In this document: in pieces, positions 1 through 64,000 of the stretch
How the letters are laid out: the number at the start of each line of letters is the position of its first letter
How positions within the stretch are numbered: position 1 is the first letter of the stretch
From: a bacterium
Lineage (GTDB): Bacteria > Myxococcota_A > UBA9160 > SZUA-336
Assembly: GCA_041498295.1 (NCBI GenBank)
Contig: JBGQIB010000001.1
Span: forward strand, 2,428 to 66,427
DNA length: 64,000 nucleotides
Direction of reading: 5' to 3'
The notes under the pieces: model-generated
Database searches by the model: none
Told to the model about the DNA's origin: nothing
The model's input: the letters and a program-made list of their open reading frames with translations, nothing else
Translations under genes and position numbers: made by a program

Positions 1-24
1 CTGGGAAGCGACGATTCGTCGAAG

Positions 25-1695
25 GTGACTGCAAAGCTGAAGGGCGCCGCGGCGAACGACGAGCTCGAGGAGCGCCTCGAGGTCGAGCTCGAATGCAGCG
101 AATGCGGCGCGAACTTCGTCGCGGGCGTTTGGGATCACTCGTTCCGCTGCACCTACTGCGGCTCGGTGCTGGCCTGCACGCGGGCGCTCGGCGAGGAGGT
201 GTTCGCGGTCTCCGACGGTGGCTCGAGCCCCTCCGACGCCCTCGCGCTCGTGATCCGCAACGAGACCGAGGGCTACCGCAACATGCTGGTCGGACGCGCG
301 AAGGGCGAGAACGAGGGCGCGGGCGAGATCTCGGCAGCGGCGATCGATGTGCAGGTCGAGGCGCTGCGCGCGAAGCTCGAACGAGAGCTCGTACTCATCG
401 AGGCCGGCGACTTCCTCGTGCCGTACGAGCTGCACGAGCGCACGGTGTTCCAGGGCATCCTGGGCCGGCGCGGCGCCGCGAAGGAGGCGTTCGTGCAGAG
501 CCTCCGCACCGAGGACGTCCAGCGCCGCTACGACCCCGCGCTCTACAACCTGCGCGACCGCGGCCTGAAGCTGCGCTTCGCGCGGGTCGCGCTGCTGCGA
601 CAAGCACACCTGGCGCGCGTCGGGGAGCGCGCCCTCGAAGCGGTCGGCGGGCGCGCGGAAGACGACGATCCCGCCGACCGCACGCGCGTGCGGGTCGACC
701 CGGAGCTCGAGATCATCGGCCGCCTGGAGGGTGTCTGCGCCGAGCGGCGGCTGCGCGTCTGGAAGCAGATGGGCTTCGCGCGCATTCAGCGCGGCGCCGG
801 GCTCGAGGACCATCTGATCGATCACCAGTTCGGGACGATCGCCGGTCGGCTCGAGCCCGAGGAGACCGAGGTCTACCGCGCGCTCGCGCCGCGCCGGCTC
901 GACGAGGTGCTGACGAAGCCGGTGCTGCGCGCGATCGCGTCCGAGTGCCCGAACTGTGGCGTCGAGCTCCAGCTCTCGCCGCGCGCGAAGCTCGCGTTCT
1001 GCGCGACCTGCGCGACCGCGATTCACGTCTCGGCAGACGGGCTGGCCGCCGTCGACTACGAGCTCGCGGCGACGCCGGAGCGCGACGGAGCCGACGCATT
1101 CATCGGCTATCCATTCTGGGCCTTCCCTGCGCGCATACTCGCCGGCGGCCGCGAGTTCCACCGGCTCTGGGATTGGCTCGAGCAAGTGAGTCCACAGCCC
1201 GCGGCGGTGCGCTACCGCGAGACTGATCCCGCGGAGGCGCGCCTGTTCGTGCCCGCGCGCGAGGTCTTCGGCACGCGCGAGCTCGACGATGCCTTCGCCG
1301 CGCTCGCGGCGGTCGCCACCTGGCGCCAACCCGTCACGCAAGTCACTCGTGCGCAGCCGAGCGACGGCGTGCGCCTGCTCGACGTCGAGCTCGAGCCGGA
1401 GCGAGCGGCGCCACTCGCCAAGTTCGCGCTCGTCGCGCTGCACGATCGCCAGAGCACGCGCGCATTGAACGGGCTGTCGTTCAAGACGTGGGTCGCGGAC
1501 GCGCGGCTCTCGCTCGGCGTGCCCCGCCTCGTCGTGTTGCCGCTGCCGCTGCACGCGGACCAGTGGCTGCCCTTGGGTCGCGCGGCGCAGTTCGATCTGC
1601 GCAATGCACCGGTGTATCCGAGGCCGGTGGCGCGCGGGGTGCTCGAGGACTCGGGCCAGCTTGCGCGGCGCTCGAAGCCGTTCTCGCTCCGCTGA
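25..1695 (+). CDS. Double zinc-ribbon protein (two CxxC...CxxC modules), YdjG-like, first gene of a Zn-ribbon/SPFH operon. GTG start at 25; upstream 24 nt are in-frame with no stop, so the gene may be 5'-partial.
   Basis: ORF track. Motifs CSECGANF...CTYCG (aa 24-46) and CPNCGVEL...CATCATA (aa ~313-333). A GAAGGAG RBS precedes the next gene, so co-operonic with downstream genes. Confidence 0.6.
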   Translation: MTAKLKGAAANDELEERLEVELECSECGANFVAGVWDHSFRCTYCGSVLACTRALGEEVFAVSDGGSSPSDALALVIRNETEGYRNMLVGRAKGENEGAGEISAAAIDVQVEALRAKLERELVLIEAGDFLVPYELHERTVFQGILGRRGAAKEAFVQSLRTEDVQRRYDPALYNLRDRGLKLRFARVALLRQAHLARVGERALEAVGGRAEDDDPADRTRVRVDPELEIIGRLEGVCAERRLRVWKQMGFARIQRGAGLEDHLIDHQFGTIAGRLEPEETEVYRALAPRRLDEVLTKPVLRAIASECPNCGVELQLSPRAKLAFCATCATAIHVSADGLAAVDYELAATPERDGADAFIGYPFWAFPARILAGGREFHRLWDWLEQVSPQPAAVRYRETDPAEARLFVPAREVFGTRELDDAFAALAAVATWRQPVTQVTRAQPSDGVRLLDVELEPERAAPLAKFALVALHDRQSTRALNGLSFKTWVADARLSLGVPRLVVLPLPLHADQWLPLGRAAQFDLRNAPVYPRPVARGVLEDSGQLARRSKPFSLR

Positions 1696-1785
1696 TCCTC
1701 CGCTCAAGCCGCTCGCGCGACCGGCCGAATCGACCAGGGATGCGCGCCTGGCGTTCATGACGCGCGCGGGCGAGAAGGAGCGACG

Positions 1786-2276: not shown

Positions 2277-3314
2277 ATGTCGCAGTTCGTCGAAGTCATC
2301 GAGTGCCTCGACCGTTCAGCCGAGACGCTCGTCTCGCGCTTTCCCGAGCAGGGCTCGGCGGAGATCAAGCTCGGGGCGCAGCTCGTCGTGCGCGACAGCC
2401 AGGCCGCGATCTTCGTGCGCGACGGCCGCGCGCTCGACACCTTTGGCGCGGGCCGACACACGCTCACGACCCTGAACGTGCCGCTCCTCTCGAAGGCGCT
2501 GTCGCTGCCGACCGGGTTCAAGAGCCCCTTCCGCGCCGAGGTGTACTTCCTCAACCTGCGCAGCTTCGTGAACCAGAAGTGGGGCACGATGGAGCCGATC
2601 CTGTTCCGCGACAGCGAGCTCGACATGGTTCGGCTGCGCGCCTTCGGGATCTACGCGTACCGCATTTCGAACCCGCAGGTGTTCCTGCACTCGCTCGTCG
2701 GCACGGTGAGTGAGTTCACGACCGAGGCCGTGGCCGACTTCTTCCGCGGGCTCATCGTGACTCAGACGGCGGACTTTCTCGGCGCGCACCTGCAGAGCGT
2801 GCTCGACCTGGCGCAGCATTACGTCGCGCTCTCGGCCGGCATCCAGGCGAAGGTGCTCGCCGACTTCGAGAAGTACGGCGTGACGATCTCGGACTTCAAG
2901 ATCCTGTCGATCTCGCCGCCGGACCACGTGCAGGAGATGATCGACAAGCGCGGCGGCATGGCGGCCGTCGGCTCGCTCGATTCGTTCGTTCGCTACCAAG
3001 CGGCGAACGCCCTCGAGAAGTCGGCTGCGAGCGGAGCCGGAGGAGGCGGCCTCGCGGCCGCGGGCGTCGGCGCCGGCGCGGGCCTCGGACTCGGCGCGGG
3101 CATGGCGGGCATCGTGAGCCAGGCGCTCGGCGCCAAGACGGCCGCGAGTCACTGTGCCGCCTGCGGCGCGGGCGTCGCGAGCGAGGCGAATTTCTGCTCG
3201 AGCTGCGGTGCGAACCAACGTCCCGCGGCGCTGACCTGCCCGAGCTGCAGTGCGCAGAACGCCTCCGCCTCGCGCTTCTGCTCGAGCTGCGGGACTCCGC
3301 TCAACCCCTCCTGA
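2277..3314 (+). CDS. SPFH/band-7 (stomatin-prohibitin-flotillin) domain protein with C-terminal tandem zinc ribbons (COG4260 / YdjI-like).
   Basis: N-terminal SPFH-like region. Gly/Ala-rich linker. C-terminus CAACGAGVASEANFCSSCG and CPSCSAQNASASRFCSSCG (two CxxC-N10-12-CxxC ribbons). Confidence 0.8.
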   Translation: MSQFVEVIECLDRSAETLVSRFPEQGSAEIKLGAQLVVRDSQAAIFVRDGRALDTFGAGRHTLTTLNVPLLSKALSLPTGFKSPFRAEVYFLNLRSFVNQKWGTMEPILFRDSELDMVRLRAFGIYAYRISNPQVFLHSLVGTVSEFTTEAVADFFRGLIVTQTADFLGAHLQSVLDLAQHYVALSAGIQAKVLADFEKYGVTISDFKILSISPPDHVQEMIDKRGGMAAVGSLDSFVRYQAANALEKSAASGAGGGGLAAAGVGAGAGLGLGAGMAGIVSQALGAKTAASHCAACGAGVASEANFCSSCGANQRPAALTCPSCSAQNASASRFCSSCGTPLNPS

Positions 3315-3327: not shown

Positions 3328-4128
3328 CTAACTCGCGAAGAGTTCGGAGAGCGTCGTCAGAGCTCGCGGCATGCGCGGGCCGTACCAGGACAAGAGCTCG
3401 CCTTCCAAGATGTGGATGCGGCCGCTGCGTGCGGCCGGGCAGTCGAGCTCGAGCAGCTCGCGGCGGTCGAACTCTCCGAAGCGGTAGGGCTCCGTCGGGA
3501 GCAGGAGGACGTCCGGCGCGGCGGCTTCGAGAGCGCTCCGCTCGATGCGTGGGTAGCGGGCGCCGCCGGCGACGGCGAACGCGTTCTGCGCGCCCGCGCA
3601 CTCGAGCAAGTCACTCGCGAACGTGTCTCCGCCGACGACCATGAGCGGGTCGCGCCAGACGAGCGCCACCGCGCGCGGTCGCGGTGCCACGCGCTTCGCG
3701 AGCGCCGCGAGGCGTGACTCGACTTCGACGCCGATCGCGTCGGCCTCGCCGGCGCGCGCGACGATGCGCCCGAGCGCGCGCATTTCGCGCACCGCCTCGG
3801 CGACGCCGCGCGCGTAAGTCACGAAGACGCGCAGGCCGGCGGCCTCGAGGCGCTCCACGTCGCGCGCGCGATTCTCTTCCTTGTTCGCGATCACGAGGTC
3901 GGGACGCAGCTCGGCGATCGCCCGTACGTCCGGATTCTTCGTGCCGCCGACGCGCGCCACGCGCACGACCTGCTCCGCGGGGTGTACACAGAACTCGGTC
4001 ACTCCGACGATCGCGTCACCCGCGCCGAGCGCGAACAACGTCTCGGTCCATGAGGGCACCAGCGAGACGATCCGCCGAGGCGGCGACGAGAACTCGTGCT
4101 CGCGTCCCAGCGAGTCGCTTTCGAGCAA
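3328..4128 (-). CDS. BtuF/FecB-like (class III periplasmic-binding-fold) cobalamin/metal-binding protein. No obvious signal peptide.
   Basis: RRIVSLVPSWTETLFALGAGDAIVGVTEFC matches the N-terminal core of BtuF-type binding proteins. 32 nt downstream of the ankyrin gene on the same strand. Confidence 0.65.
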   Translation of the reverse strand: MLESDSLGREHEFSSPPRRIVSLVPSWTETLFALGAGDAIVGVTEFCVHPAEQVVRVARVGGTKNPDVRAIAELRPDLVIANKEENRARDVERLEAAGLRVFVTYARGVAEAVREMRALGRIVARAGEADAIGVEVESRLAALAKRVAPRPRAVALVWRDPLMVVGGDTFASDLLECAGAQNAFAVAGGARYPRIERSALEAAAPDVLLLPTEPYRFGEFDRRELLELDCPAARSGRIHILEGELLSWYGPRMPRALTTLSELFAS

Positions 4129-4160
4129 GGCGTCTCTTTACGGCTCGCCGAGCCGCGGCG

Positions 4161-6848: not shown

Positions 6849-7598
6849 TTAGGTATTTCGAACGCGCCGCCCGCTGAGCACAGCGAGCGCCGAGAAGCCG
6901 AGGAGCCATGCAATCGCGGGCTCTGGTACGGCGACGATGTTCGAAACACTCACGATGAAATCGTTGAAGCCGCCGTCGTTGCCGGTCTCGAAGGCGAGGA
7001 GATATTGATTCGTGAGAAACAGGCCGGGTGACTGGCCCGGGAACTTCAAGGTCGTCGTGCCGTTCCCTGCGAACACCTTGACCCGAACCTCGCCGCCGTT
7101 GAGGTCCGCTTCGGTGAACAGATACACAGGCGAGTCACTGTGCGCCGACGCGACCTTGGCGAAGAAGCCGAACGGGCCGTCGAAGCCCGACGCCTTCGCC
7201 TTCGGCGTGAGACCGCCGCGAATCGTGATCGAGCCGTCGTCGCTGAAGCTCACGCTCGCGACATCGTCCGGCGACATGCTGTCGGAGAGCAGGAACGCGT
7301 GGTTCCCCGAATCGTCGGCGGGGTACATGCCGAACCAGAGCGCGTCGGACCGCCCCGTGTAGTCGACCACGACGTTGGCGCTCATCGGCCCCGAGGCATT
7401 GTCCCAGAGGTCGATGTTGGCCGGCGCGCCGGCGTCGATCGCCGGGCCCGACACGACGAGGCCGTCGAGAATTTGCTGCAGGCTCGGAGCGGCCGGGGTC
7501 GGCTTGGGACACCGCGCTGGCTTGGTAATCAGATGTGCGCCCGCGGTTTGGGCGAACAGCACGAGACACACGAGTGCCGGGAGAACCCGCTTGATCAT
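6849..7598 (-). CDS. PEP-CTERM sorting-domain surface protein.
   Basis: Signal peptide MIKRVLPALVCLVLFAQTAGA. C-terminal VPEPAIAWLLGFSALAVLSGRRVRNT (PEP motif + TM + basic tail). Start trimmed to the internal ATG at residue 38 of the ORF. Confidence 0.75.
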   Translation of the reverse strand: MIKRVLPALVCLVLFAQTAGAHLITKPARCPKPTPAAPSLQQILDGLVVSGPAIDAGAPANIDLWDNASGPMSANVVVDYTGRSDALWFGMYPADDSGNHAFLLSDSMSPDDVASVSFSDDGSITIRGGLTPKAKASGFDGPFGFFAKVASAHSDSPVYLFTEADLNGGEVRVKVFAGNGTTTLKFPGQSPGLFLTNQYLLAFETGNDGGFNDFIVSVSNIVAVPEPAIAWLLGFSALAVLSGRRVRNT

Positions 7599-14273: not shown

Positions 14274-14343
14274 AAGGCGATCCGCGGCTACAAGGAAAAC
14301 GTCAGTGAGTGCGGCCGGAGAGTCATGGCTGTCTCTGATCGGG

Positions 14344-14430: not shown

Positions 14431-14504
14431 AGCAAGATGCTCTTACACTAAAAGATAGTGGAAGAACGACTCACTGCTCGAATCAGCGAAAGGCCGGCGC
14501 TTCG

Positions 14505-15083: not shown

Positions 15084-16696
15084 TTGTACTCTCCCGCGGC
15101 GAACTGCTGCGCCGACTTGTAGTCCGCCTTGCCGTTCGGCGCGCGAAACATGGCCGGCACCGCGAGGACGCGCTTCGGCACCTTGTAGCCCGCGAGCCGC
15201 TCCTTCACGTGCGCACGGAGCTTCTCCTCGTCGGTCACCGCGCCGCCGCGCAGCTGCACGACGCCCACGACCGCGTTGCCCCAGCGGTCGTCGGGCACGC
15301 CGACCACGAGCGCGTCCTCGACGTCGGGATGCGTCTTCAGCGCCTCCTCGACCTCCTCGGGGTAGATCTTCTCGCCGGCGGAGTTGATGCACGCGCTACC
15401 GCGCCCGAGCAAGGTCAGCGTTCCGTCCGCCTCGACGATGCACCAGTCACCCGGGATCGAGTAGCGCACGCCGTTGATCGTCGGAAACGTCTTCGCGGTC
15501 TTCTCGGGGTCCTTGTAGTAGCCGACGGGGATCGGGCCGCTGCGCGCGACGAAGCCCTTCTCGCCGCTTCCGGGAGTCACTTCGCGGTGATCCTCGCTGA
15601 ACACCTTGCAGCGATCGCCGATCGTGAACTTCGCGGTGCGCGCTTCGCCGGCCGCCGACATCACCGAGACGCCGAAGCCCACGGCTTCGGACGAGCCGAA
15701 CGAGTCGGTGAGCAGCATGCCCGGGTGATGCCGCAGGAGGCCCTTCTTCACCTCGGTGCTCCACATGACCCCGGACGAGACGATCAGCTTCACCGACGAC
15801 AGGTCCCAGCGACCCGGGTTTTCGTCGAGCGCGTTCAGCATCGGCTTCGCGAACGCGTCGCCGACGATCACGAGTGAGTTGGCCTGTTGACGCTGAACGG
15901 TGTCGAACAGCTCTTCGCAATCGAATTTGCTTCCCGCGAGCGTGATCACGCAGCCGCCGGCGATCATCGTGCCGATCGCCGTGAACAGCCCCGTGCCGTG
16001 CATCAGCGGGCAGCACGGGATTTGGCGCGTCGTCGAGCCGGCCTTCCGCGCGTTCGCGACATGCTGTTCGAGCGTGGCCGGCGCGACTCCGCCGTTCGCG
16101 GGCGCATTCGCGCCCGCGCCCAGCGCGTGCCAGAGATCGTTCGCGGTCCACATCACGCCCTTGGGCATGCCGGTGGTGCCGCCGGTGTAGAGGAAGAGCA
16201 TGTCCTCGCCACTGCGGCGGATGCCGAGCGGGCGACCGTCGCCGCTGGTCGCGAGGGTCTCGTAGGACTCACCGAGCTGCGGGCCGTCGCCGACCCGGAT
16301 CCAGGCGGCGACGCGCGGCAGGCGCGGGCGCAGCAGCTCGACCCTTTCCGCGAACTCGGCGTCGAACAGCACCACCTTCGCATCCGAGTTGTCGAGGATG
16401 TAGCGGAGCTCCTCGTCCAGATAGCGGTAGTTCACGTTCACCTGGACGAGCCGCGCCTTGAAGCAGGCGGCGAGCGCCTCGGTGTACTCGGGTCGGTTGC
16501 GCAGGTAGAACGCGACCTTGTCGCCCGGCTCGGCGCCGCGCGCGAGCAGCGCCGCCGCGAGGTTGTTCGAGCGTCGCCCGAGCTCGCGCCACGTGACCGT
16601 GCGCTCGCCGTGGATCAGCGCCGGCGCGTCGCCCGGAAACGACGCGTCGAGCGCGTCGAGAATGTCACCGAAGTTCCAGTTTGGAGCCGTCGTCAT
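15080..16696 (-). CDS. AMP-dependent acyl-CoA synthetase/ligase.
   Basis: LYTGGTTGMPKGV AMP-binding motif, YGSSE-like and C-terminal lysine region. Start set at MTTAPNW, residue 64 of the ORF. Confidence 0.85.
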   Translation of the reverse strand: MTTAPNWNFGDILDALDASFPGDAPALIHGERTVTWRELGRRSNNLAAALLARGAEPGDKVAFYLRNRPEYTEALAACFKARLVQVNVNYRYLDEELRYILDNSDAKVVLFDAEFAERVELLRPRLPRVAAWIRVGDGPQLGESYETLATSGDGRPLGIRRSGEDMLFLYTGGTTGMPKGVMWTANDLWHALGAGANAPANGGVAPATLEQHVANARKAGSTTRQIPCCPLMHGTGLFTAIGTMIAGGCVITLAGSKFDCEELFDTVQRQQANSLVIVGDAFAKPMLNALDENPGRWDLSSVKLIVSSGVMWSTEVKKGLLRHHPGMLLTDSFGSSEAVGFGVSVMSAAGEARTAKFTIGDRCKVFSEDHREVTPGSGEKGFVARSGPIPVGYYKDPEKTAKTFPTINGVRYSIPGDWCIVEADGTLTLLGRGSACINSAGEKIYPEEVEEALKTHPDVEDALVVGVPDDRWGNAVVGVVQLRGGAVTDEEKLRAHVKERLAGYKVPKRVLAVPAMFRAPNGKADYKSAQQFAAGEYK

Positions 16697-17996: not shown

Positions 17997-18963
17997 GCCC
18001 GCTCTTCAGCGCAAGCAATGCCTCGTTCGCGCGCGCAAACTCGAAGGCGGTCGTGCGCGGGCGCAGCGGGATTTCGGCCGCGAGCGCGAGCAGCTCGCGG
18101 CCGTCGGCGCGCGTGTTCGCGGTGACACTCGTCAGTGTTCGCTCCTCGAAGAGGTGGCGCGCGTAGTCGAGCGCGGGGACGTCACTCATGTGGATGCCCG
18201 CGCAGGCGAGCGTCGCGCCCGGCGCGAGCGCTTCGAGCGCGGGCGGCACGAGCGCACCGACGGGCGCGAACAGCACGGACGCGTCGAGTTTCTCCGGCGG
18301 CAGCGCGTCGAGATCGCCCGCCCACTCGGCGCCGAGCGCGAGCGCCAGCGCGCGGTGCGACGCCTCGCGCGTCACGACGAAGACGCGCGCGTTCCAGTGT
18401 CTCGCGACCTGCAGGGCGATGTGCGCGGACGAGCCGAAGCCGTACAGGCCGAGCTTCTCTCCGGGCCGGATGCCGCTGCGCCGGAGCGCGCGGAAGCCGA
18501 TGATCCCCGCGCACAGGAGCGGCGCGGCGGACTCGTCGTCGAGTGACTCGGGCAGCGCGTAGGCGAAGTCCTCGGGCACGCGCACGCGCTCCGCGAAGCC
18601 GCCGTTCTCGTGCCAGCCGGTGAACGACGGCGCGCGGCACAGGTTCTCGTCGCCGCGCAGGCAGTACGCGCAGGCGCCGCACGCGCGCCACAGCCAGGCG
18701 ACTCCGACGCGCGCGCCGAGCGCGAAGCGCCGCGCGCCCGCGCCCAGCGCGGCGACCCGGCCGACGACCTGATGTCCGGGCACGATCGCGGGGCGCTGCC
18801 TCGCGAGCTCACCTTCGATCACGTGCAGATCGGTGCGGCACAGCCCGCAGACCGACACGTCGACCGCGATCTGGCCCGGCCCCGGCGCGGGATCGGGAAG
18901 CTCGCGCAGCGCGAGCGGCGCGCTCTCGATCGGTCCGGGCTCTTGGAGCACCCACGCGCGCAT
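17959..18963 (-). CDS. Zinc-dependent medium-chain alcohol dehydrogenase/reductase.
   Basis: GHQVVGRV, CGACAYC structural-zinc motif, GxGxxA Rossmann region. Confidence 0.85.
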   Translation of the reverse strand: MRAWVLQEPGPIESAPLALRELPDPAPGPGQIAVDVSVCGLCRTDLHVIEGELARQRPAIVPGHQVVGRVAALGAGARRFALGARVGVAWLWRACGACAYCLRGDENLCRAPSFTGWHENGGFAERVRVPEDFAYALPESLDDESAAPLLCAGIIGFRALRRSGIRPGEKLGLYGFGSSAHIALQVARHWNARVFVVTREASHRALALALGAEWAGDLDALPPEKLDASVLFAPVGALVPPALEALAPGATLACAGIHMSDVPALDYARHLFEERTLTSVTANTRADGRELLALAAEIPLRPRTTAFEFARANEALLALKSGLIAGSGVLRVRR

Positions 18964-18990: not shown

Positions 18991-19698
18991 TTGAACGTTC
19001 TTCTCTTCGACGAGAGCGACGAGCTCGCGCCGGGACGCGTGCGCGTGGCGGGCCGCCGCTTGCGCCACGTGCGCGAGATACTTCGCGCGAAAACCGGCGA
19101 CGAGCTCGTCGTCGGCAAGCTCGACGACCGGCTCGGACGCGGCCGCATCGCGCGCCTGGACGCGGAGGCGCTCGACCTCGAAGTCACTCTCGAACGCGAT
19201 CCGCCGCCGCCGCACGGCGCCGTGCTCGCGGTCGCGCTGCCGCGGCCGCCGAGCCTGCGCAAGGTGCTGCAGCAGGCGACCGCGCTCGGCGTGAAGCGCC
19301 TCGTGTTCTTCGCCAGCGCGCGCGTAGAGAAGAGTTACTGGCAGAGCTCGGCGCTGCGCCCGGACGCGCTGCGCGAGCAGCTACTGCTCGGGCTCGAGCA
19401 AGCGGGGGATACGCGCGTTCCGCGGCTCGACTTCGCGCGCAGCTTCCGCCACTTCGTCGCCGAAACGTTGCCCGCACTGGCGGACGGCGCGCCCATCTTC
19501 GCGGCGCACCCGGGTCATGCGCCCATCGCGCTCGGCGCGGCGCCGCGCTGCGCGCTCGTGGTCGGGCCCGAGGGCGGCTTTCTCGACGACGAGCTCGCCG
19601 AGCTCGAGCACGCGGGCGCGCGTGCCGTCGGACTCGGGCCGCGCGTGCTGCGCATCGAGACGGCCGTCGTCGCGCTCCTGTCTCGCGTCGCCGGTTGA
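18991..19698 (+). CDS. rsmE: 16S rRNA (uracil1498-N3)-methyltransferase RsmE. TTG start inferred.
   Basis: C-terminal LVVGPEGGF...GPRVLRIETA SPOUT motif. No ATG/GTG between the convergent ADH start and the conserved N-terminus. Confidence 0.7.
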   Translation: MNVLLFDESDELAPGRVRVAGRRLRHVREILRAKTGDELVVGKLDDRLGRGRIARLDAEALDLEVTLERDPPPPHGAVLAVALPRPPSLRKVLQQATALGVKRLVFFASARVEKSYWQSSALRPDALREQLLLGLEQAGDTRVPRLDFARSFRHFVAETLPALADGAPIFAAHPGHAPIALGAAPRCALVVGPEGGFLDDELAELEHAGARAVGLGPRVLRIETAVVALLSRVAG

Positions 19699-43254: not shown

Positions 43255-43372
43255 CCGCGGGCGCGCGGCGCGCAGCGAGCCGCAGGCGAGCGAAGAGCGG
43301 GTGGCGCGGCTTAGCCCGACACCGGCGCGCGGGCCGGTGTCCCGCGGGAGCGGGCCCCGCTAAGTCACTCGA
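43255..43372 (-). repeat. Stop-codon-abutting repeat, full copy starting at the TGA of the DUF4388 gene. Hairpin GACACCGGC-N-GCCGGTGTC.
   Basis: GCGCAGCGAGCCGCAGGCGAGCGAAGAGCGGGTGG...CCCCGCTAAG-TCA(stop). Confidence 0.6.
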
Positions 43373-50581: not shown

Positions 50582-51484
50582 CTAGTCTTCCTTCGCGCGC
50601 GGGTGGGCGGCGCGGTAGACGCGCGCCAGTCGCTCGGCGGAGACGTGGGTATAGCGCTGAGTGGTGGAGAGCCGCTCGTGGCCCAGGAGCTCCTGGATCG
50701 CGCGCAGGTCGACGTCCGCGTCGAGCAGATGCGTCGCATAAGAGTGTCGCAGGGTGTGGGGGCTCGCGGGCCGCGCGATCCCAGCCACGAGCATGCGCCG
50801 GCGCAGGATCACGCGCACGCCGCGGTCCGACAGCGCCCCGCCGCGCGCGTTCGTGAACATCGGCTCTGCGAGCAGGCCTTCGGCGGGGCGCAGTTTCAGC
50901 CAGGCGTCGAGCGCGCCGCGCGCTTCGGAGGGCACCGGCACGACACGCTCCTTGTTGCCTTTGCCCGAGACGCGCAGCTCGCGGCGGTCGTGGTCCCAGT
51001 CGCGCACGCGCAGCGCCGCGAGCTCGCCCACGCGCAGCCCCGTTCCGTAAAGCAGCTCGAAGAGCGCCTTGTCGCGCAGCGCGAGCGAGGGCGCGCGGGT
51101 CGGGTCCTCGCTCTCGACCAGCTGCTCGCAGTCCTCGGCCGAGAGTGGCGAGGGCAGACGGCGTTCGCGCTTCGGCCCGGGCAGCCCCTCGGTCGGGTCC
51201 GCGCCGCGCGCGCCGATCTTCACGCGGAAGCGGAAGAACGCGCGCAGGGCCGCGAGCCGACGGTTGCGCGTCGACGCCTTGTGCACGCGGTGAAAGCCGG
51301 CGAGGTAGGTGCGCACCGCCAGTGACTCGATGCGATCGAGTCCTCCGGCGCGCGCGCACTCCGGGCTCTCGGCGAGCTGGCGCGCTTCGCCCAGATACGC
51401 GCGCGAGGTGTGCGGCGAGAGACCGCGCTCGGCGACGAGGTGGCGTTCGAAGGCCGTGATGGCGCGCGCGTCGGCCGGAGTCAC
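50582..51484 (-). CDS. xerC: Tyrosine recombinase XerC/XerD family. GTG start overlapping the trmFO stop.
   Basis: R...HxxR...Y catalytic residues (LRHSYATHLL, TQRYTHV). 300 aa counted from VTPADARAI. Confidence 0.85.
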   Translation of the reverse strand: MTPADARAITAFERHLVAERGLSPHTSRAYLGEARQLAESPECARAGGLDRIESLAVRTYLAGFHRVHKASTRNRRLAALRAFFRFRVKIGARGADPTEGLPGPKRERRLPSPLSAEDCEQLVESEDPTRAPSLALRDKALFELLYGTGLRVGELAALRVRDWDHDRRELRVSGKGNKERVVPVPSEARGALDAWLKLRPAEGLLAEPMFTNARGGALSDRGVRVILRRRMLVAGIARPASPHTLRHSYATHLLDADVDLRAIQELLGHERLSTTQRYTHVSAERLARVYRAAHPRAKED

Positions 51485-52844: not shown

Positions 52845-52960
52845 GCCGCAGCAAGCGAAGCGCGCAGCGAGGCGCAGCCGAGCGAAGAGGGGGTGGCGGC
52901 GGCCGGACATCGGCCCGCCGGCCGATGTCCCGCGGGGGCGCCGGGGCCACTAAGACCTCA
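52845..52960 (-). repeat. Stop-codon-abutting repeat, full copy at the dprA stop. Hairpin GGACATCGGC-N-GCCGATGTCC.
   Basis: GCGCAGCGAGGCGCAGCCGAGCGAAGAGGGGGTGG...GGGGCCACTAAG with the TAG of CTAAG serving as the dprA stop. Confidence 0.6.
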
Positions 52961-54047
52961 GGCTGAGCCGCGAGCCCTCGCGGCGGAGCGCTCCGTCGAG
53001 CTCGAGCTCGAGCAACACGCGCGCCAGCTCGGCCGGGCTCCGCCCGAGCGCGCGGGTGAGCGTGTCGAGATCGCACGGCCCGTCGGCCAGATGCTCGAGC
53101 ACCGCGCGCGCCGCCGGCGTCGCATCGCTCGCTTGCACGGGCACGCGAGGCTTCGCGGCGAGCGGGCCGAGCACGGCCTCGCGCAGGTCGTCCGCATCGA
53201 GGATCGGAATCGCGCCGTCACGCAACAGGCGATTGGAGCCGCGACACAGATCGGCGTCGATCGGCCCGGGCACGACCGCGACGTCGCGTCCCTGCTCGAG
53301 TGCGTGGCGTGCGCTCCACAGGGTGCCGCTCTTTTCGCGCGCCTCGACGATCAGGGTCAGGCGCGCGAGTCCGCTGATCAGCCGATTGCGCTCCGGGAAG
53401 TGGTGAGGGTGGGCGTCGGCGCCGGGATTGCGCTCCGACAGCCATGCGCCGCCGCCCGCGAGAATCCGCTCCGCGAGCCGCCGCTGACCCGCGGGAGTCA
53501 CTCGATCGAGGCCCGAAGCGAGCACCGCCACCGTGCAGCCCGCCCCCGCGAGCGCGCCCTCGTGCGCCGCTGCATCGATGCCATAGGCGAGACCCGAGAC
53601 GATCGCGACGCCGGAGCGCGATAGCTCCCCGGCGAAGGCGTGCGCGGTTGCAACGCCCCTCCCGGTCGGACGCCGCGAGCCGACGATCGCGATCGCCGGT
53701 CCGGTCGGGAGCTCGCCGCGCAGCCACAGCAAGAGCGGCGGATCGGGGATCTCGCGCAGCGCGGCCGGGAACTCGAGTGACTCGGGCGCGACCGCGCGCA
53801 CGCCGGACGCCGCTCCGAGCGCGAGCGCGCGTTCGCCCGCGCTCGCGTCGACGGCGCGCGCAACCGCCGACGCGAGCTTGCGCGGAACGTGCGCGGCAAG
53901 CCGCGCCGAGCTGGCGCCGAGCAGCGCGCTCGCCGATCCGTACAGCGCAATGAGTCGGCGCGCGTGTGCGCGCGAGAGACCGGGAACGGCGCCGAGTGCG
54001 GCGCGGGCAACGAGCTCGTCGTTCACGGAAAAACTCCGCGGGACCAC
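52950..54047 (-). CDS. dprA: DNA-processing protein DprA (Smf).
   Basis: Rossmann-like DprA core (IAIVGSRRPTGRG, VVSGLAYGIDAAAH), C-terminal winged-helix region. Confidence 0.85.
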   Translation of the reverse strand: MVPRSFSVNDELVARAALGAVPGLSRAHARRLIALYGSASALLGASSARLAAHVPRKLASAVARAVDASAGERALALGAASGVRAVAPESLEFPAALREIPDPPLLLWLRGELPTGPAIAIVGSRRPTGRGVATAHAFAGELSRSGVAIVSGLAYGIDAAAHEGALAGAGCTVAVLASGLDRVTPAGQRRLAERILAGGGAWLSERNPGADAHPHHFPERNRLISGLARLTLIVEAREKSGTLWSARHALEQGRDVAVVPGPIDADLCRGSNRLLRDGAIPILDADDLREAVLGPLAAKPRVPVQASDATPAARAVLEHLADGPCDLDTLTRALGRSPAELARVLLELELDGALRREGSRLSLRS

Positions 54048-54778: not shown

Positions 54779-57388
54779 ATGTCCGAGCTCCCGCAAAGCT
54801 ACGAGCCCGACAAAGCCGAGGGCCGCTGGGCCGAGCGCTGGGAACGCGAGGGCGTATACCGCTGGGATCCGGCGCGCCGCCGCGACGAGACGTTCGTCAT
54901 CGACACACCGCCGCCCACGGTGTCCGGGTCGCTGCACATCGGCCACGTCTTCAGCTACACGCACGCGGATCTGATCGCGCGCTTCCAGCGCATGCGCGGC
55001 AAGAACGTCGCGTTCCCGATCGGCTGGGACGACAACGGACTGCCGACGGAGCGGCGCGTGCAGATCGTGCTCGGACTGCGCCCGAATACGAAACTCGCGT
55101 ACGACCCGCACTGGCAGCCGCGCCGCGACAAAAAGGCCGACGAACCGCTCGAAGACGTCTCGCCGCAGAACTTCATCGAGGCCTGCAAGCTCGTGATGAG
55201 CGAGGACGAGGCAGTATTCGAGGCGCTCTGGCGGCGGCTCGGTCTCTCGTACGACTGGACGCAGCTCTACCGCACGATCGCGGATCACCCGCGGCGCATC
55301 GCGCAGCTCTCATTTCTCGACCTCTACGCGAAGCGCGAGGCGTACTCGAAATTCGCCCCCACGATGTGGGACGTCGACGACCAGACCGCGGTCGCGCAGG
55401 CGGAGACGGAGGACCGCGAGCAGCCCGGCGCGTATCACGATCTACGCTTTTCGGTGTTGGGCGGCGGCGAGCTCACGATCTCGACGACGCGGCCCGAGCT
55501 GCTCGGCGCCTGCGTCGCGGTGGTCGCGCATCCCGACGACGAGCGCTACCGCGCGCTCTTCGGCAAGACGGCGCGCACACCCCTCTTCCACGCGCCGGTG
55601 CCGATCGTGGCCAGTGCGCACGCCGATCCCGAGAAGGGCACGGGCATCCTGATGGTGTGCACGTTCGGCGATCAGGCCGACGTGGAGTTCTGGCGCGCCC
55701 AGAGCCTGCCGCTGCGCCAGCTGATCGGCCCCGACGGGCGCATGCGCCGCGTGGTCTTCGGCGAAGCGCCCTTCGCCAGCGAGGATGCGGCGCGCGCGCG
55801 CGCCGCCTGGGCCGAGCTCGAGGGAAAAACGGTCAAGCAGGCGCGCGCGAAGATCGTCGAGCTGCTGCGCGCCGACGGCGCGCTCGTCGGCGAGCCGCGC
55901 GCGATCACGCATCCGGTGAAGTTCTACGAGCGCGGCTCGCGCCCGCTCGAGTTCTTGCCCACGCGCCAGTGGTTCGTGCGCATCCTGGTACACAGAGATG
56001 CGTTGCTCGAGCAGGGCCGGAAGATCGAGTGGCACCCGGCGCACATGCGCGCGCGCTACGAGAACTGGGTGCAAGGCTTGAATCAGGACTGGTGCGTGAG
56101 TCGCCAGCGCTTCTCGGGCGTGCCCTTCCCGGTCTGGTACCGGCTCGACGCACAGGGCCGGCCCGACCATGAGCGCCCGCTGCTCGCGCGCGCCGAGGAG
56201 CTTCCCGTCGACCCGCGCCTGCAGCCGCCGACGGGCTACGGCGAGGCGCAGCGCGGCCAGCCGGGCGGATTCATCGGCGATGCGGACGTCATGGACACCT
56301 GGGCGACGTCGTCGATGTCGCCGCAGATCATGAGTCACTGGACGCTCGACCCCGCGCGTCACGCACAGCTGTTCCCGATGGACATGCGCCCGCAGGCGCA
56401 CGAGATCATCCGCACCTGGCTCTTCTACACGGTCGTGAAGGCGTATCTGCACGAGCGCGAGATCCCGTGGAAACACGCTGTGATCAGCGGCTGGATCCTC
56501 GACCCGGACCGCAAGAAGATGAGCAAGTCGAAGGGCAACGTGACTACGCCCGCGCACTTGCTCGACCAGCACTCGGCCGACGCGGTGCGCTACTGGGCGG
56601 CGCGCGCGCGGCTGGGCGTCGACACGACCTTCGACGAGCAGGTGATGAAGCTCGGCAAGCGCCTCGCGACGAAGCTCGTGAACGCCGGCCGCTTCGCGAT
56701 CCTGCAGCTCGAGCGCGCCGGCGCCACGCCGGAGACACATCCGGCGAGCGCGATCTCGCACCCGCTCGACGTCGACTTCGCGGCGCGCCTGCGCGAACTG
56801 GTCGCGCGCGCGACCGCGTCGTTCGAGGAGTTCGAGTACGCCGCCGCGCTGCAGGCCACGGAAGAGGCATTCTGGGACTTCTGCGACAACTATCTCGAGA
56901 TCGTGAAGGTGCGCGCGTACGCGGAGTCACCCTCGCCCGAGCAGCGCTCGGCGCTCGCGACGCTGCAGCTCGCGCTGCGCGTCTTCCTGCGGCTGTTCGC
57001 GCCTGCGCTGCCGTTCGTGAGCGACGAGATCTGGTCGTGGCGCTTCGCGGCGAGCGCGGGCGGCCGTTCGATTCACTCGGGTCCGTGGCCGAGCGTCGAG
57101 GAGTTCGCCGGTATTTCGCTCGAGCGCGCGGGCCGCGCGTATGCGGCCGCGTGCGAGATATCGACGCGGATTCGCGGCGCGAAGACGAGCGCGAAGAAGA
57201 GCCTGCGCTGGCCGGTCGCGCGCCTCGAGGTGCGCGGCGCGGAGCCCGACCTCGCCGCTCTGCGCACGGTGCTACCCGACGTCCTCGCCGCCGGCGTGGT
57301 CGACACCGCTGGGTGTCGCCTCTCCGCGGGTGCGCCCAGCGACGGAGCGATCTTCGCGACCGAGGTAGAGCTGGCTACGGCGTCTTAG
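54779..57388 (+). CDS. valS: Valine--tRNA ligase (compact type lacking the C-terminal coiled coil).
   Basis: PPPTVSGSLHIGH (HIGH), KMSKSKGNV (KMSKS), editing-domain sequences. ATG at 54779 just after the CPBP stop. Confidence 0.9.
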   Translation: MSELPQSYEPDKAEGRWAERWEREGVYRWDPARRRDETFVIDTPPPTVSGSLHIGHVFSYTHADLIARFQRMRGKNVAFPIGWDDNGLPTERRVQIVLGLRPNTKLAYDPHWQPRRDKKADEPLEDVSPQNFIEACKLVMSEDEAVFEALWRRLGLSYDWTQLYRTIADHPRRIAQLSFLDLYAKREAYSKFAPTMWDVDDQTAVAQAETEDREQPGAYHDLRFSVLGGGELTISTTRPELLGACVAVVAHPDDERYRALFGKTARTPLFHAPVPIVASAHADPEKGTGILMVCTFGDQADVEFWRAQSLPLRQLIGPDGRMRRVVFGEAPFASEDAARARAAWAELEGKTVKQARAKIVELLRADGALVGEPRAITHPVKFYERGSRPLEFLPTRQWFVRILVHRDALLEQGRKIEWHPAHMRARYENWVQGLNQDWCVSRQRFSGVPFPVWYRLDAQGRPDHERPLLARAEELPVDPRLQPPTGYGEAQRGQPGGFIGDADVMDTWATSSMSPQIMSHWTLDPARHAQLFPMDMRPQAHEIIRTWLFYTVVKAYLHEREIPWKHAVISGWILDPDRKKMSKSKGNVTTPAHLLDQHSADAVRYWAARARLGVDTTFDEQVMKLGKRLATKLVNAGRFAILQLERAGATPETHPASAISHPLDVDFAARLRELVARATASFEEFEYAAALQATEEAFWDFCDNYLEIVKVRAYAESPSPEQRSALATLQLALRVFLRLFAPALPFVSDEIWSWRFAASAGGRSIHSGPWPSVEEFAGISLERAGRAYAAACEISTRIRGAKTSAKKSLRWPVARLEVRGAEPDLAALRTVLPDVLAAGVVDTAGCRLSAGAPSDGAIFATEVELATAS

Positions 57389-59578: not shown

Positions 59579-59866
59579 TCGCGGTCACCGCAGCCAAGAC
59601 TCACGCCTATTCGCGCGCGGGCGCCCCCGTCCTCCGCTCTCGCGAGAGTGACCCGATGGCCGCCCCCACCGCCTTCCCCTGGCGCCCCGCCCAAGAAGCA
59701 GACGCGGACGCGAGCGTCACAAGACTCATGCCTGTTCGCGCGCGGGGCGCGGGCGCGCAGCTCGACGAGGAGGGTCGAGCGCGTACCCGCGCGAAGGGGA
59801 CCCCCGAGGAGAGCTGCGCGACCGCGCCCCGCGCGCTCCTGGTGTCCGGCTCCCTAGAGTGACTCG

Positions 59867-61084: not shown

Positions 61085-63532
61085 TCAGCCGGTTTGAAGC
61101 TCCTTGAGGAGCTTCTCGGCCTCGGCGCGTTCGTTGAACTGCGCCGCTTCGTCGAGCGCGCGCTTGAGCTCCGCGACGGCCCGGTCGCGCTCGCCGTTCT
61201 TGTCATAGGCCTTCGCCAGGTGGTAGCGGACGGTGCCGCGCAGCGGATGGCCCTCGGGGTAGCCCTCGATCGCCTCCTTGAAGAGCGCGATGGCCGCGGC
61301 GGAGATGCCCTTCTTGTACATGATCCAGCCGAGCGTGTCCGCGACGCTGGGCTCGTTGGGCAGCGCGTTCTTCGCGTCCTGCGCGAGCTGCAGCGCGCGA
61401 TCCAGATCGGCGGGGCTCGGGTTGTCCACGTTCGCCAGCAACCAGGCGAGATTGTTCTTTGCGGCGGCCTGGTCCTGGTCGATGCGCAGAACGGCCTCGT
61501 AGTACTCCTTCGCCTGCGCGGTCCTGCCGGCAGACTCACAGAGCTGCGCGAGCTCGAGCGAGATAGCGGCGTTGTCCGGCTGCAGCGCGTGCGCCTTGTC
61601 GAACGTGCTGATCGCCTGGTCCAGGCGCTTCTCGCCGCCCTCTTTGCGCCACAGCTCGCGGTGCAGCTTGCCGAGCGTCATCAGTGACTCGACCCGCTTC
61701 GGGTCCTTCTGGACGGCGATCAGCAGGTCGGCTTCGGCCTTCTCGAACGTGTCCGGCTTCTGATCGGGGCTGCCGAGTCGGATCTTCGCGCGCATCTCGT
61801 AGAGCGCGGCGTTGTCGGGCTGCTCGGCGATCCAGCCGTCGATCTTCTTCATCGCCTGTTCCGGCTGGCGCTCGTCCAGATCCGCTTGCGCGATCTCCGC
61901 CATCACCGCCCCGTTGGTCGGGTCTTGCTGGTGGAGCTTCTCGAGGATCGGCGCGGCGAGCTTCGGCTCGCGCGTGCGCCGGTAGAGCTGCGCGATCTTG
62001 AGCTGGACCTCGGGCGAAGTGCCGTCGGGAATCGAGATCGCGTGCAGAGCCTCGCGCGCCTCGTGGATGCGCTTCAAGCGCACGAGCGCCTCGGCGTAGA
62101 CCAAGGTCACCCGCAGGTCGCCATGGGCTTGATCGAGCGCCGCCTTCGCCTCGCGCGCCGAGTTCTCGTTCTCGTTGGCGTCGAGATACAGAGCGGAGAG
62201 CTGGCTGCGCGCGGGCAAGTTCTGCGCGTCGAGCTGCAGCGCCTGCTGGAACTCACTGCGCGCCAGCTCGGTCTGGTGCTGCGCGAGATACGCGGTGCCG
62301 AGTAACACGTGCGCGCCGGCGTTGGGCTGCTCGTCGATCACGCGCCGCAGGCTGGTCGCCGCCTCGGCGTACTTCTTGTCGAGCAGATAGAACTTCCCCT
62401 CAGTGAACAAGCCGAGGACGCTCTTGGGGTTTTCCTTCAGCACGTCGCGCACGATGGCCCACGCCTCGGGAGTGGGCGTCGCGGACTCGCCCTTCTGATC
62501 GACCATCAGCTCGGCGCGGCGCAAGCGCGCGGACTCGTTCTTCGGCTCGAGCACGATCGCGCGATCGACGTCGGCGAGCGCCTTGTCCATGGCGCCCGTG
62601 CGCCGGTGGTAGTCGGCCAGCACGAGCAGTGGGTCGACGGAGTCGGGCTTCGCCTTCACGCCCTCCTCGAGCATCTCCTCCGCCTTCTCCGCTTTGCCCG
62701 CCGAGTAGTAGAAGCGCGCGAGCGTCAGCAGCACGTTCGTGTCGGCCGGCGCGTCGTCTCGCGCTTGCAACAAAACCTGCTCGGCTTTGTCGTTCTGCGA
62801 CTGATTCATGTAGAAGTTCGCTAGGAAGAGGCGCACCGACGTGCGGTCTTGCGGCGTATCCGCGACGGAGATCGCGGTCTCGAGCTCCTTCAACGCCTCG
62901 TCGTTCTTTCCGATGATCGCGAGAAAGCGCGCGAGGCTCGTGTGATTCGCGGCGGAACCCTTCGCCTCGACCAGCTTGCGCAGCGCTTCCTCGGCGCCGG
63001 CCACGTCGCCTTTGCGCCCGAGCGCCTGGGCCTTGAGCGCGAGCGCCGCCTCGTGCTGAGGGTCCACCTCGAGCGCCGCGTCGACGTCCTCGAGCAAGCC
63101 GTCGACATCGCCCTTCACCGACTTCAGCCCGCCGCGCAGAAGCAGCGCTTCGATGTTCTTCGGATCTTTGTCGAGAAGCACAGTGACTTGCTCGAGCGAG
63201 CCGTCGTAGTCGCGCGCGACGAACAGGACCTGCGCGAGCTTCAGCTTCCACGGCTCGTTGTCAGGCGCGAGCCGGGCCGCTTCCTTGTACTGCCAGAGCG
63301 CTTCGCCGTACTCCTGGAGCGCCCAGAGCGTCTCGGCCATCTGGTAGTGCGCTTCCGCGTCGTTGGGCGCGAGCTTGAGCAGGTTGAGGAGCGCGATCTT
63401 CGCCTCGCTCCATTCCTTTTTGTCGTAGTACTCGGTCGCCGCCTTGCGGCTTTCGGCGATTCGCGTTTCGCGCGAGGTGCAGCCGCCGATGGCAGCGAGC
63501 AGAAAAACGGCAACGAGGACGGCGGCGCGCAT
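61085..63532 (-). CDS. TPR-repeat lipoprotein, PrsT-like (PEP-CTERM system TPR-repeat protein).
   Basis: Lipobox LLAAIGGC. ~20 TPR units across 815 aa. Size and architecture match TIGR02917-type PrsT. Start set at MRAAVL. Confidence 0.7.
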   Translation of the reverse strand: MRAAVLVAVFLLAAIGGCTSRETRIAESRKAATEYYDKKEWSEAKIALLNLLKLAPNDAEAHYQMAETLWALQEYGEALWQYKEAARLAPDNEPWKLKLAQVLFVARDYDGSLEQVTVLLDKDPKNIEALLLRGGLKSVKGDVDGLLEDVDAALEVDPQHEAALALKAQALGRKGDVAGAEEALRKLVEAKGSAANHTSLARFLAIIGKNDEALKELETAISVADTPQDRTSVRLFLANFYMNQSQNDKAEQVLLQARDDAPADTNVLLTLARFYYSAGKAEKAEEMLEEGVKAKPDSVDPLLVLADYHRRTGAMDKALADVDRAIVLEPKNESARLRRAELMVDQKGESATPTPEAWAIVRDVLKENPKSVLGLFTEGKFYLLDKKYAEAATSLRRVIDEQPNAGAHVLLGTAYLAQHQTELARSEFQQALQLDAQNLPARSQLSALYLDANENENSAREAKAALDQAHGDLRVTLVYAEALVRLKRIHEAREALHAISIPDGTSPEVQLKIAQLYRRTREPKLAAPILEKLHQQDPTNGAVMAEIAQADLDERQPEQAMKKIDGWIAEQPDNAALYEMRAKIRLGSPDQKPDTFEKAEADLLIAVQKDPKRVESLMTLGKLHRELWRKEGGEKRLDQAISTFDKAHALQPDNAAISLELAQLCESAGRTAQAKEYYEAVLRIDQDQAAAKNNLAWLLANVDNPSPADLDRALQLAQDAKNALPNEPSVADTLGWIMYKKGISAAAIALFKEAIEGYPEGHPLRGTVRYHLAKAYDKNGERDRAVAELKRALDEAAQFNERAEAEKLLKELQTG

Positions 63533-63623
63533 CTCGAAGATCCTCCATCGGTGCGGTTTCGCCCGAACCTCTAGCATAGCCCGAGTCAGGCCGTACCGGC
63601 GGTAGGTTCGCGAGCGAGAGGTC

Positions 63624-64000
63624 TTAGCTCTCTGCGTCCGCGGACGGGACGAGGTAGCGCTTGCCCTCTTGCTCGAGCCAGCCCTCGTCCTTCAGCTCTT
63701 TGACGACGCGCGTGATGGTCTCTCGGCTGGTGCCGACGAGATCGGCGAGCTGCTGGTGGGTGATCGGAGACGTGGCCATCCGGTCGTCGCGACCGGCGAC
63801 CGGTTCCTTGGCCAGGCGCGCGAGCAGGCGGCGCGTGCGGCCCTCGACGCGCTCGAAGAGCAGACCCTTGATCTGCTCGTCGGTCTCGCGCAGGCGGCGC
63901 GCGAGAACGCGGATCAGCTCGAGGGTCACTTCGTGGTTCTGCTTCAGGAGACCCAGAAAGTCCTGGCGCGAGAGCGCGAGCAACACGCACGGCGTCGTCG
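63624..64000 (-). CDS. Crp/Fnr-family transcriptional regulator, C-terminal HTH part only; gene continues past the window end.
   Basis: HTH segment ITHQQLADLVGTSRETITRVVKELKDEGWL. Upstream cNMP-binding-like sequence runs to position 64000. Confidence 0.7.
   Translation of the reverse strand, partial: TTPCVLLALSRQDFLGLLKQNHEVTLELIRVLARRLRETDEQIKGLLFERVEGRTRRLLARLAKEPVAGRDDRMATSPITHQQLADLVGTSRETITRVVKELKDEGWLEQEGKRYLVPSADAES

Follow-up and report, generated by a model that had tools for sequence, protein, structure and literature searches.

What writes the same A/T-containing word, over and over, into the genes of a bacterium whose DNA is 68.5% GC? The question is raised by a stretch of 64,000 nucleotides from an uncultured member of the Myxococcota (GenBank assembly GCA_041498295.1, contig JBGQIB010000001.1, positions 2,428 to 66,427; hereafter the window), through which the nonamer AGTSACTCG (S, G or C) and words related to it are scattered. 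In a preliminary description, the nonamer was taken to be strand-specific and was assigned to the replication-oriented signals, such as Chi, the FtsK-orienting polar sequences (KOPS), or other architecture-imparting motifs, or else to the DNA-uptake sequences. The analysis presented here, which extends from the window to related loci and unlinked contigs, leads to another answer: a force that is both strand-symmetric and sequence-specific is at work genome-wide in a small number of lineages and overrides codon preference as well as some amino-acid identities. The word itself is probably a lineage-specific, hyper-abundant, degenerate quasi-palindrome of the class of the highly iterated palindromes (HIPs) and, more loosely, of the DNA uptake sequences (DUS).

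Identity and Enrichment of the Motif

AGTSACTCG occurs 17 times in the window, 12 times on the + strand and 5 times on the − strand, just as the preliminary description had counted, against 1.8 ± 1.6 occurrences in dinucleotide-preserving shuffles; the heptamer AGTSACT occurs 25 times against 3.05 ± 1.7, and in neither case did any of the 100 shuffles reach the observed count. GTGACT and AGTCAC together number 61 where an order-3 Markov model predicts ~17, so that the excess previously put at ~49 against ~18 is borne out with a higher count. In an unbiased scan of all k-mers, AGTGACT/AGTCACT was the top 7-mer of the window by z-score and AGTGACTCG the top-ranked 9-mer. As AGTGACT and AGTCACT are mutual reverse complements, the AGTSACT core is a quasi-palindrome, and the notion of a strand-specific nonamer falls: the full word is the strand-symmetric (C)GAGTSACTC(G), and AGTSACTCG is one half-extended form of the 11-bp CGAGTSACTCG, which is present in its entirety at two window positions (18540 and 53774).

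Twenty-three of the 25 AGTSACT sites lie inside coding sequence. The three reading frames are used 7, 7, and 10 times, intergenic sites occur besides, and the coding sites employ the rare codons AGT, ACT, and TCA; the earlier contention that coding bias is not the source holds, the signal being one at the level of DNA, beyond what codon bias can create. A long-repeat search of the window returned no motif-bearing family except one two-copy short repeat (at 13405 and 14344), and the sequences flanking the sites are mutually unrelated, with none of the shared flanks of >20 nt, mostly between genes, that mark repetitive extragenic palindromic (REP) elements or miniature inverted-repeat transposable elements. 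Because the shuffles fall below the observed counts and the flanks are unrelated, the enrichment is real, and local repeats, which the preliminary description had entertained as a possible source, are ruled out. Two further candidates were tried and rejected, namely a structured RNA, as an Rfam scan of the window gave no match, and a sequencing-adapter artefact involving CCAGTCAC, which resembles the end of the TruSeq adapter, as the reading frames stay open and orthologous sites recur in independent assemblies.

Distribution Among Related Lineages

An AspRS-anchored scan provided syntenic loci of related Myxococcota metagenome-assembled genomes (MAGs). At this locus, enrichment was limited to the window's species, L010 (94% amino-acid identity), L029 (89%), and L007 (87%), and was absent from L013 (88%), L030 and L053 (86%), L008, L009, L056, and all loci more distant still; sister species with an AspRS protein 79–88% identical lack the motif. 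When 101 kb of enriched sequence was compared with 109 kb of sister sequence, the mono-, di-, and trinucleotide frequencies proved to be the same (ACT/AGT ratio, 1.06), whereas the counts differed for GTGACT/AGTCAC (108 vs. 17), GTGACTC/GAGTCAC (59 vs. 7), and AGTSACT (36 vs. 4). A shift in codon usage or composition was accordingly rejected as the cause, the frequencies being equal to those of the sister MAGs.

Unlinked DNA was sampled through metagenome contigs that bear an intergenic REP-like repeat of the window (120 contigs, 525 kb). Most of these carry no site at all; L123, L105, and L107 stand out, L123 with 19 AGTSACT sites and 44 relaxed sites (GTSACT or AGTSAC, i.e., one mismatch permitted at an outer position) in 11.2 kb of housekeeping genes, and L105 and L107 with 9 and 4 AGTSACT sites, respectively. 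At the EttA locus, the number of AGTSACT sites per 10 kb is 17 in L123, 8.3 in L210, 4.2 and 3.2 in L207 and L208, 1.4 in L213, 0.5 in L211, and 0 in L209, L212, and L215, the motif being absent from four of the eight lineages; L210 has 18 sites and L209 none, at an EttA nucleotide identity of ~88%. Between genus-level relatives AGTSACT density differs ~60-fold, and the graded series (0, 1.4, 4, 8, and 17 per 10 kb) suggests a young, still accumulating state.

For pooled comparisons, the loci were arranged into a motif-rich group (L123, L105, L107, and L210), a window clade (the window, L029, L007, L010, L207, and L096), and controls (the sister MAGs plus L209, L211, L212, and L215), in which AGTSACT reaches 10.6, 3.6, and 0.26 sites per 10 kb, respectively. 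Unlinked loci of one MAG agree with each other, both in DATJZP01 (L029 and L207; 2.8 and 4.2 per 10 kb) and in the control JBBDXF01 (L053 and L211; both 0.5 per 10 kb). In the window's lineage the word is spread over the genome, as it fills the whole 64 kb and recurs at two unlinked loci of a same-clade MAG. The preliminary description had allowed that the enrichment might be confined to the window; relatives and other genomic parts were checked, and the motif was met there as well. Among the 215 loci compared, recurrence of GAGTSACTC is confined to the enriched lineages, and, judged from these sequences, the word appears to be limited to a small set of uncultured Myxococcota from soil that are close relatives of one another and whose sister species lack it.

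A lineage-against-rest k-mer scan for another "dialect" in the sister lineages yielded nothing comparable. CGAWTCG (W, A or T) reaches 7.8 per 10 kb over the whole L056 locus, against 0.5–3.2 in relatives, which places it only 2.5–3 times above the others, and was taken as compositional because the excess is modest, the flank profile ordinary, and GAWTC density ~9-fold variable between loci. A separate observation concerns L123, where an 880-bp insertion (4134–5007), absent from four aligned relatives (L210, L207, L208, and L209), encodes a class I S-adenosylmethionine methyltransferase of the small-molecule type, not a DNA methyltransferase, and already bears 8 GTSACT-type sites.

Specificity of the Word

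The extent of the word was gauged by reading outward from each GTSAC on both strands, with loci pooled per lineage group. The first base after GTSAC is T in 55% of cases in the motif-rich group, 31% in the window clade, and 5–9% in controls; the second is C in 52, 35, and 27%; and the third is G in 42, 37, and 27%. The profile is mirror-symmetric rather than asymmetric over 9–12 nt, as an uptake sequence would be. One-mismatch variants of AGTSACT are also enriched, chiefly those deviating at an outer position (in the window clade, 126 at positions 1/7, 50 at positions 2/6, and 63 at positions 3/5), and the one-off relatives present in the window include AGTGTCT, AGTGAGT, and GACTCAC.

The specificity is degenerate, of the form G-W-G-W-S-W-C-W-C. 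Runs of strict W/S alternation of length 9 number 19.8 per 10 kb in the motif-rich group, 9.1 in the window clade, and 2.3 in controls, and a second quasi-palindrome, TGASTCA, numbers 4.0, 1.1, and 0.15 in the same groups. The preference is nevertheless sequence-specific, for AGTSACT and TGASTCA rise while AGASTCT and TGTSACA do not. Alongside the main motif, TGASTCA/GTGASTCAC and the direct-repeat-like GAGTGAGTC climb in L123, L210, L105, and the window (e.g., at 41143-41152), and may stand either for one degenerate specificity or for two systems.

Origin of the Sites

Sister MAGs carry ordinary GC-rich sequence at orthologous positions (e.g., AGCGACT, GGTSACG, or GAGCGCGTC), and the sites are therefore derived. 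With the ancestral state taken from outgroups of which two or more agreed, every site that could be polarised (17 of 17) is a gain, achieved by 1–3 changes, transitions and transversions alike (C>T 8, G>A 7, G>T 6, C>A 5, C>G 4, G>C 3, A>G 1, and T>G 1). GC-to-AT changes make up 74% of these, compared with a background of 33%. The gains thus span at least eight substitution types at six positions and are alike only in their end state, which speaks for biased fixation toward the word and not for a simple mutational signature. At three of ten window sites the change is a synonymous swap to a rare codon (TCG to TCA, ACC to ACT, and CGC to CGA), and at the other seven the amino acid is unlike that of the sisters. 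Stepwise intermediates may be recognised in AGCGACC (L209 and L210), AGTGACC (L207), and AGTGACT (L123). Taken together, the alignments indicate that directional substitutions from ordinary GC-rich sequence recently created the word. At 68.5% GC the word comes at a cost, paid in A/T bases, rare codons, and altered amino acids, so that the force behind it must be strong.

The sites turn over rapidly, and selection on them was considered and rejected. Mostly private to single lineages, they are kept in 18 of 78 pairwise comparisons of lineages, where 30 would be expected from random hexamer positions in the same alignments; among near-identical strains (99.6–99.97%), no polymorphism was seen at motif positions, with <1 expected. 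For each perfect site there are 2.7 outer-position one-off variants in the window clade and 1.3 in the motif-rich group. In L123, the 44 sites are spaced more evenly than random (coefficient of variation 0.58, P < 0.001), while spacing in the window shows no departure from random (coefficient of variation 0.83–1.02). It looks, therefore, as though accumulation is still under way and near saturation in some lineages.

A Putative Mechanism and Its Alternatives

The closest likeness, one that the preliminary description had not considered, is to the HIPs of cyanobacteria, i.e., HIP1 (GCGATCGC) and the alternate HIPs GGCGCC, rCCGGy, and GCsGC, which are likewise short palindromes or quasi-palindromes, with a central S in GCsGC, found far above expectation (PMC4390886, PMC5861425). 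As with HIPs, the sites described here lie inside genes in all frames and between genes and are not a peptide or RNA motif, and one-off variants are enriched, mostly at outer positions. HIPs have been reported at observed/expected ratios of 15–300 and about 500–2,500 per Mb, their densities running from hundreds to ~2,000 per Mb; AGTSACT attains such over-representation in the motif-rich lineages (19 versus 1.0 expected and 1,700 per Mb in L123; 41-fold over the sisters in the motif-rich set) and is borderline in the window (a ratio of ~8 versus shuffles, 14-fold over the sisters, and 390 per Mb). HIPs are, in addition, distributed periodically at 10–90 kb; in the sequences compared here, contiguous over at most 64 kb, evenness was seen at short range, in L123. 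The present word differs in that it belongs to Myxococcota, is of odd length, and contains A/T in a GC-rich genome, at the price of rare codons.

To account for such a word, it may be supposed that a protein found in these lineages alone recognises both strands of the duplex in the same way, in which case mutations bringing a near-match closer to the word would be preferentially fixed and sites would pile up to a roughly even spacing. The preferred engine would be a horizontally acquired DNA methyltransferase of GTSAC-type specificity; sites that it had methylated would tilt the outcome of mismatch repair or recombination, along the lines suggested for alternate HIPs. This engine is favored because GTSAC is a known Type IIP specificity, because alternate HIPs accompany cognate methyltransferases, and because the patchy distribution fits a mobile gene; we infer it tentatively, as a possibility that falls short of being probable. 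Host genomes normally avoid restriction targets, and the difference here is that the target is 14- to 40-fold enriched and extended to 7–11 bp. The 5-bp core itself is an exact match to the Type IIP restriction-modification target GTSAC (Tsp45I; M.Hpy99II, an N6-methyladenine methyltransferase) (PMC3936762). Alternate HIPs occur sporadically, in single cyanobacterial lineages, alongside the cognate methyltransferase, and Elhai proposed a methyl-directed mismatch-repair ratchet for motifs of this kind, noting that one-off variants of HIP1 deviate mostly at outer positions (PMC4390886).

Several observations weigh against this account. Pfam scans of the window, L123, L105, and L107 returned only small-molecule methyltransferases, and neither the window nor the motif-rich loci yielded a candidate DNA methyltransferase, nuclease, or pilin, in contrast to the cognate enzymes of the alternate HIPs. 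We know of no methylation-linked repair mechanism that drives GC-to-AT change at four positions of a 7-mer. The enriched words also include non-palindromic relatives (AGTGTCT, AGTGAGT, and GAGTGAGTC), of which GAGTGAGTC was counted 23 vs. 0 times and AGTGTCT 19 vs. 0 times, and, together with the second quasi-palindrome TGASTCA, they are not obviously accounted for by a single dimeric recogniser. Moreover, all sequences derive from MAGs or metagenome contigs of at most 64 kb each, and sites are not conserved between motif-rich lineages, whereas those of HIP1 are conserved between genomes (PMC5861425).

The first alternative is a molecular drive akin to that behind uptake sequences, in which a competence receptor prefers word-bearing DNA, and uptake followed by homologous recombination spreads motif-creating mutations. 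Known uptake sequences, which are common to whole families, are thought to accumulate by drive and not through any site-specific function. Such a drive would likewise have all substitution types converge on the same end state, enrich one-off variants, leave both orientations equally frequent, space sites evenly (1 site per 250–600 bp in L123), and replace them quickly between lineages; the substitution spectrum, even spacing, and turnover in fact fit it equally as well as the methyltransferase engine. The window also contains dprA, a gene nearly universal and hence not diagnostic of competence, and beyond it no receptor candidate was found. DUS and the uptake signal sequences of Neisseriaceae and Pasteurellaceae resemble the present word in their density (~1 per kb), their occurrence in both orientations and in coding sequence, the enrichment of mismatched variants, and their lineage-specific "dialects" (PMC3630211, PMC3868556), and a preprint reports improved natural transformation of Synechococcus sp. 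PCC 7002 through HIP1 (10.1101/2024.09.10.611283). The uptake sequences differ in being asymmetric 9–12-mers recognised by a pilin (ComP) or an unknown receptor (PMC3630211), whereas AGTSACT is palindromic and is patchy even among genus-level relatives (L209, 0; L210, 18). Uptake drive, which the preliminary description had also named, is kept as a serious rival, though a less likely one.

A second alternative, to which a lower probability still is assigned, holds that the sites are under selection because an abundant protein unique to these lineages, nucleoid-associated or chromosome-structuring, binds them. The palindromic half-sites GAGT and ACTC would suit a dimer, the high density and even spacing would suit a structural role, and a part in nucleoid structure has been argued for HIP1 (PMC5861425); site positions, however, are not conserved, the gradation from 0 to 17 per 10 kb among close relatives resembles accumulation over time and not a fixed architectural need, and no candidate protein was found. 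The word might, thirdly, be the by-product of a context-dependent mutational process (a mutator polymerase or a deaminase), with neither a recognition protein nor a function. That many W/S-alternating words rise jointly and that sites are not conserved would be in keeping with this idea, but it is made improbable by the diversity of the gains, which have in common only where they end, by the unchanged mono-, di-, and trinucleotide composition, and by the high sequence specificity described above.

Strand Bias and Gene Orientation

The + strand excess that first drew attention to the nonamer requires an explanation of its own. GTSACTCG occurs 22 times in the window and its reverse complement 8 times (p = 0.016), where 21 and 7 had been reported, so that the excess stands with slightly corrected counts; the 12 vs. 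5 of AGTSACTCG is, alone, not significant (p = 0.14). Some 70% of the window's genes lie on the − strand, and the earlier claim that orientation is constant regardless of gene strand fails: GTSACTCG is found in a ratio of 1(+):2(−) in + genes and 18:6 in − genes, and GTGWSTCG in ratios of 1(+):7(−) and 25:5. When six loci with genes in both orientations were pooled, GTGACTC stood at 16:33 in + genes and 29:7 in − genes (Fisher p = 2e-5), and the orientation of GTGWSTCG likewise switched with gene strand (Fisher p = 9e-10). GTSACT with a degenerate centre is symmetric in the pooled loci (113 sense and 127 antisense).

The bias of the central base is explained by avoidance of an in-frame TGA stop on the sense strand: at coding sites of the window in the frame xAG-TSA-CTx, TCA occurs 7 times and TGA not once, while in the other two frames the central base is G or C at 8:9. 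The CG extension favors the antisense strand ~2:1 and tracks gene strand, presumably from codon context. What looks like a preference for the + strand is a by-product of coding, i.e., of TGA avoidance in a window where − strand genes prevail, and, because the orientation flips between adjacent genes of one contig, it cannot signal the direction of replication. Chi and KOPS are co-oriented with replication whatever the gene strand and are conserved over wide clades. The polar signal proposed in the preliminary description, oriented by replication (Chi for RecBCD/AddAB, KOPS for FtsK, or another architecture-imparting motif), can be dismissed as highly improbable, since its one support is the window's + strand excess, and against it stand the self-complementary core, the overall symmetry of GTSACT, the reversal of the bias in opposite-strand genes within the same contigs, the sister species devoid of the motif, and a word that is not G-rich. 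KOPS resemble AGTSACT in being over-represented short words scattered through genes (PMC3384302), yet KOPS, G-rich 8-mers with an extreme skew that switches at dif, are asymmetric, as is Chi, unlike the palindromic AGTSACT, whose residual bias follows gene strand. More generally, gene orientation and stop-codon avoidance can by themselves give a motif an apparent strand bias when only a short window is viewed.

Another strongly skewed k-mer, GGGTTGTT, was considered as a polar signal and rejected, being the antisense of an Asn-Asn-Pro repeat within a single 1786-aa gene. This gene (30183-35543, −), whose product has no Pfam match, holds 7 of the 10 GGGTTGT copies of the window; these are the antisense of the repeated Asn-Asn-Pro coding word, are conserved in relatives, and account for the skew.

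Sites and Other Features of the Window

All 12 + strand sites listed in the preliminary description exist, with coordinates up to 14 nt off (1341 instead of 1351, 28956 instead of 28967, and 53496 instead of 53510, for example). Relaxed sites number 81 and are spread over the whole window (1..64000) at a mean spacing of 799 bp. In the left part of the window, AGTCACT cores lie at 1341..1347 (extended as AGTCACTCG; + gene, frame CAA GTC ACT), 3147..3153 (extended as CGAGTCACT from 3145; + gene, frame AGT CAC), 3609..3615 (AGTCACTCG; − gene, sense AGT GAC), and 7133..7139 (CGAGTCACT from 7131; − gene). They are followed by an AGTCACT core at 15575..15581 in a gene for an AMP-binding enzyme, where sister MAGs have GCGATCT or similar and EIAP/EVVP has become EVTP, and by the first full 11-bp palindrome, CGAGTGACTCG, at 18540..18550 in an alcohol dehydrogenase gene, where the sisters' GAGCGCGTC accompanies a change from DAL to ESL. 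AGTCACT recurs at 19182..19188 (sisters GGTCGCG; EVAL to EVTL), and AGTGACT at 22024..22030 (+ gene), 23342..23348 (sisters AACGCGT), and, in the aspartyl-tRNA synthetase gene, 27389..27395 (sisters AGCGACT; synonymous, TCG to TCA). A GGDEF response-regulator gene holds two copies of AGTGACTCG, one at 28853..28861 (sisters GGTSACGCG; synonymous, with the rare codons CGA and ACT) and the other at 28956..28964 (sisters AGCGACTCG or AGCGCCTCG; synonymous, TCG to TCA), and the 1786-aa gene holds AGTCACT at 31185..31191 and AGTGACTCG at 34873..34881 (sisters AGGTTCTCG or AGCTGCTCG; ETLL/ENLL to ESLL).

Further to the right, an AGTGACT core at 41143..41149 runs on as AGTGACTCAC, and AGTCACT lies in an ABC1 kinase-like gene at 41624..41630. 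A copy of AGTCACTCG at 43363..43371 overlaps the TGA stop of a TPR gene (43365-44114, −), which also contains CGAGTGACT at 44083..44091. AGTGACTCG occurs in an XerC-like integrase gene (51321..51329); dprA carries both AGTCACTCG (53496..53504) and the second full 11-bp palindrome CGAGTGACTCG (53774..53784); and an AGTCACT core is found in a class I tRNA synthetase gene (56333..56339; + gene). The intergenic AGTGACTCG at 59858..59866 adjoins the stop codon of a − gene (59867-60991), and a TPR protein gene holds the last two sites, AGTGACTCG at 61683..61691 and AGTGACT at 63182..63188.

Several other features of the window were recorded. The intergenic REP-like repeat GCGCAGYGAGSCGMAGSCGARCGAAG is present in four copies, partly as inverted pairs (41847-41872 on the − strand, and 41957-41982, 43270-43295, and 52862-52887 on the + strand), and has exact matches, often in tandem, on more than 120 soil or sediment metagenome contigs. 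Inverted repeats of 50 nt (13448-13497 and 14504-14553; 94% complementary) flank ~1 kb of poorly coding DNA, with an open reading frame (13516-14010) lacking a Pfam hit between them, and a direct repeat, GTGACTCGCCGCCCGTGCGG, is located at 13405 and 14344; judged by this arrangement, the region 13405-14553 may be a small mobile or invertible segment. The gene at 4161-6833 (−) encodes an 890-aa protein composed almost entirely of ankyrin repeats, which give rise to DNA repeats of 99-nt period. At 43365-46727 (−), a short HSP70 (525 aa) is flanked by a DnaJ-TPR protein and a TPR protein, in a cluster that adjoins argG, argB, argF, and hslUV. Lastly, GC content dips to 64–65% at 30000-40000, compared with 68–73% elsewhere, over a region spanning the 1786-aa gene and an MMPL-family transporter.

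Outlook

The origin and purpose of hyper-abundant motifs such as HIP1 have been debated for ~30 years, in part because HIP1 is of ancient origin and occurs in nearly the whole of its phylum. The signal described here is of the same kind, and it is young and polymorphic among close relatives. In the literature searched, neither AGTSACT nor GAGTSACTC has been reported as a genomic motif, and AGTGACT appears once, in an unrelated context. Tentatively, then, the word may be a genome-wide "self-tag" of the HIP or DUS class, the first to be met beyond cyanobacteria, Neisseriaceae, and Pasteurellaceae and one observed in the course of its spread, although the assignment is open to doubt. If it is correct, the causal gene, whether a methyltransferase, a repair nickase, or an uptake receptor, could be mapped by its presence or absence across sister MAGs, and the stepwise build-up of a hyper-abundant motif could be traced. 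The main value of these Myxococcota would lie in the natural presence/absence and dosage series that close relatives provide, through which the origin of such a motif becomes testable by comparative genomics and metagenomic methylation calling.

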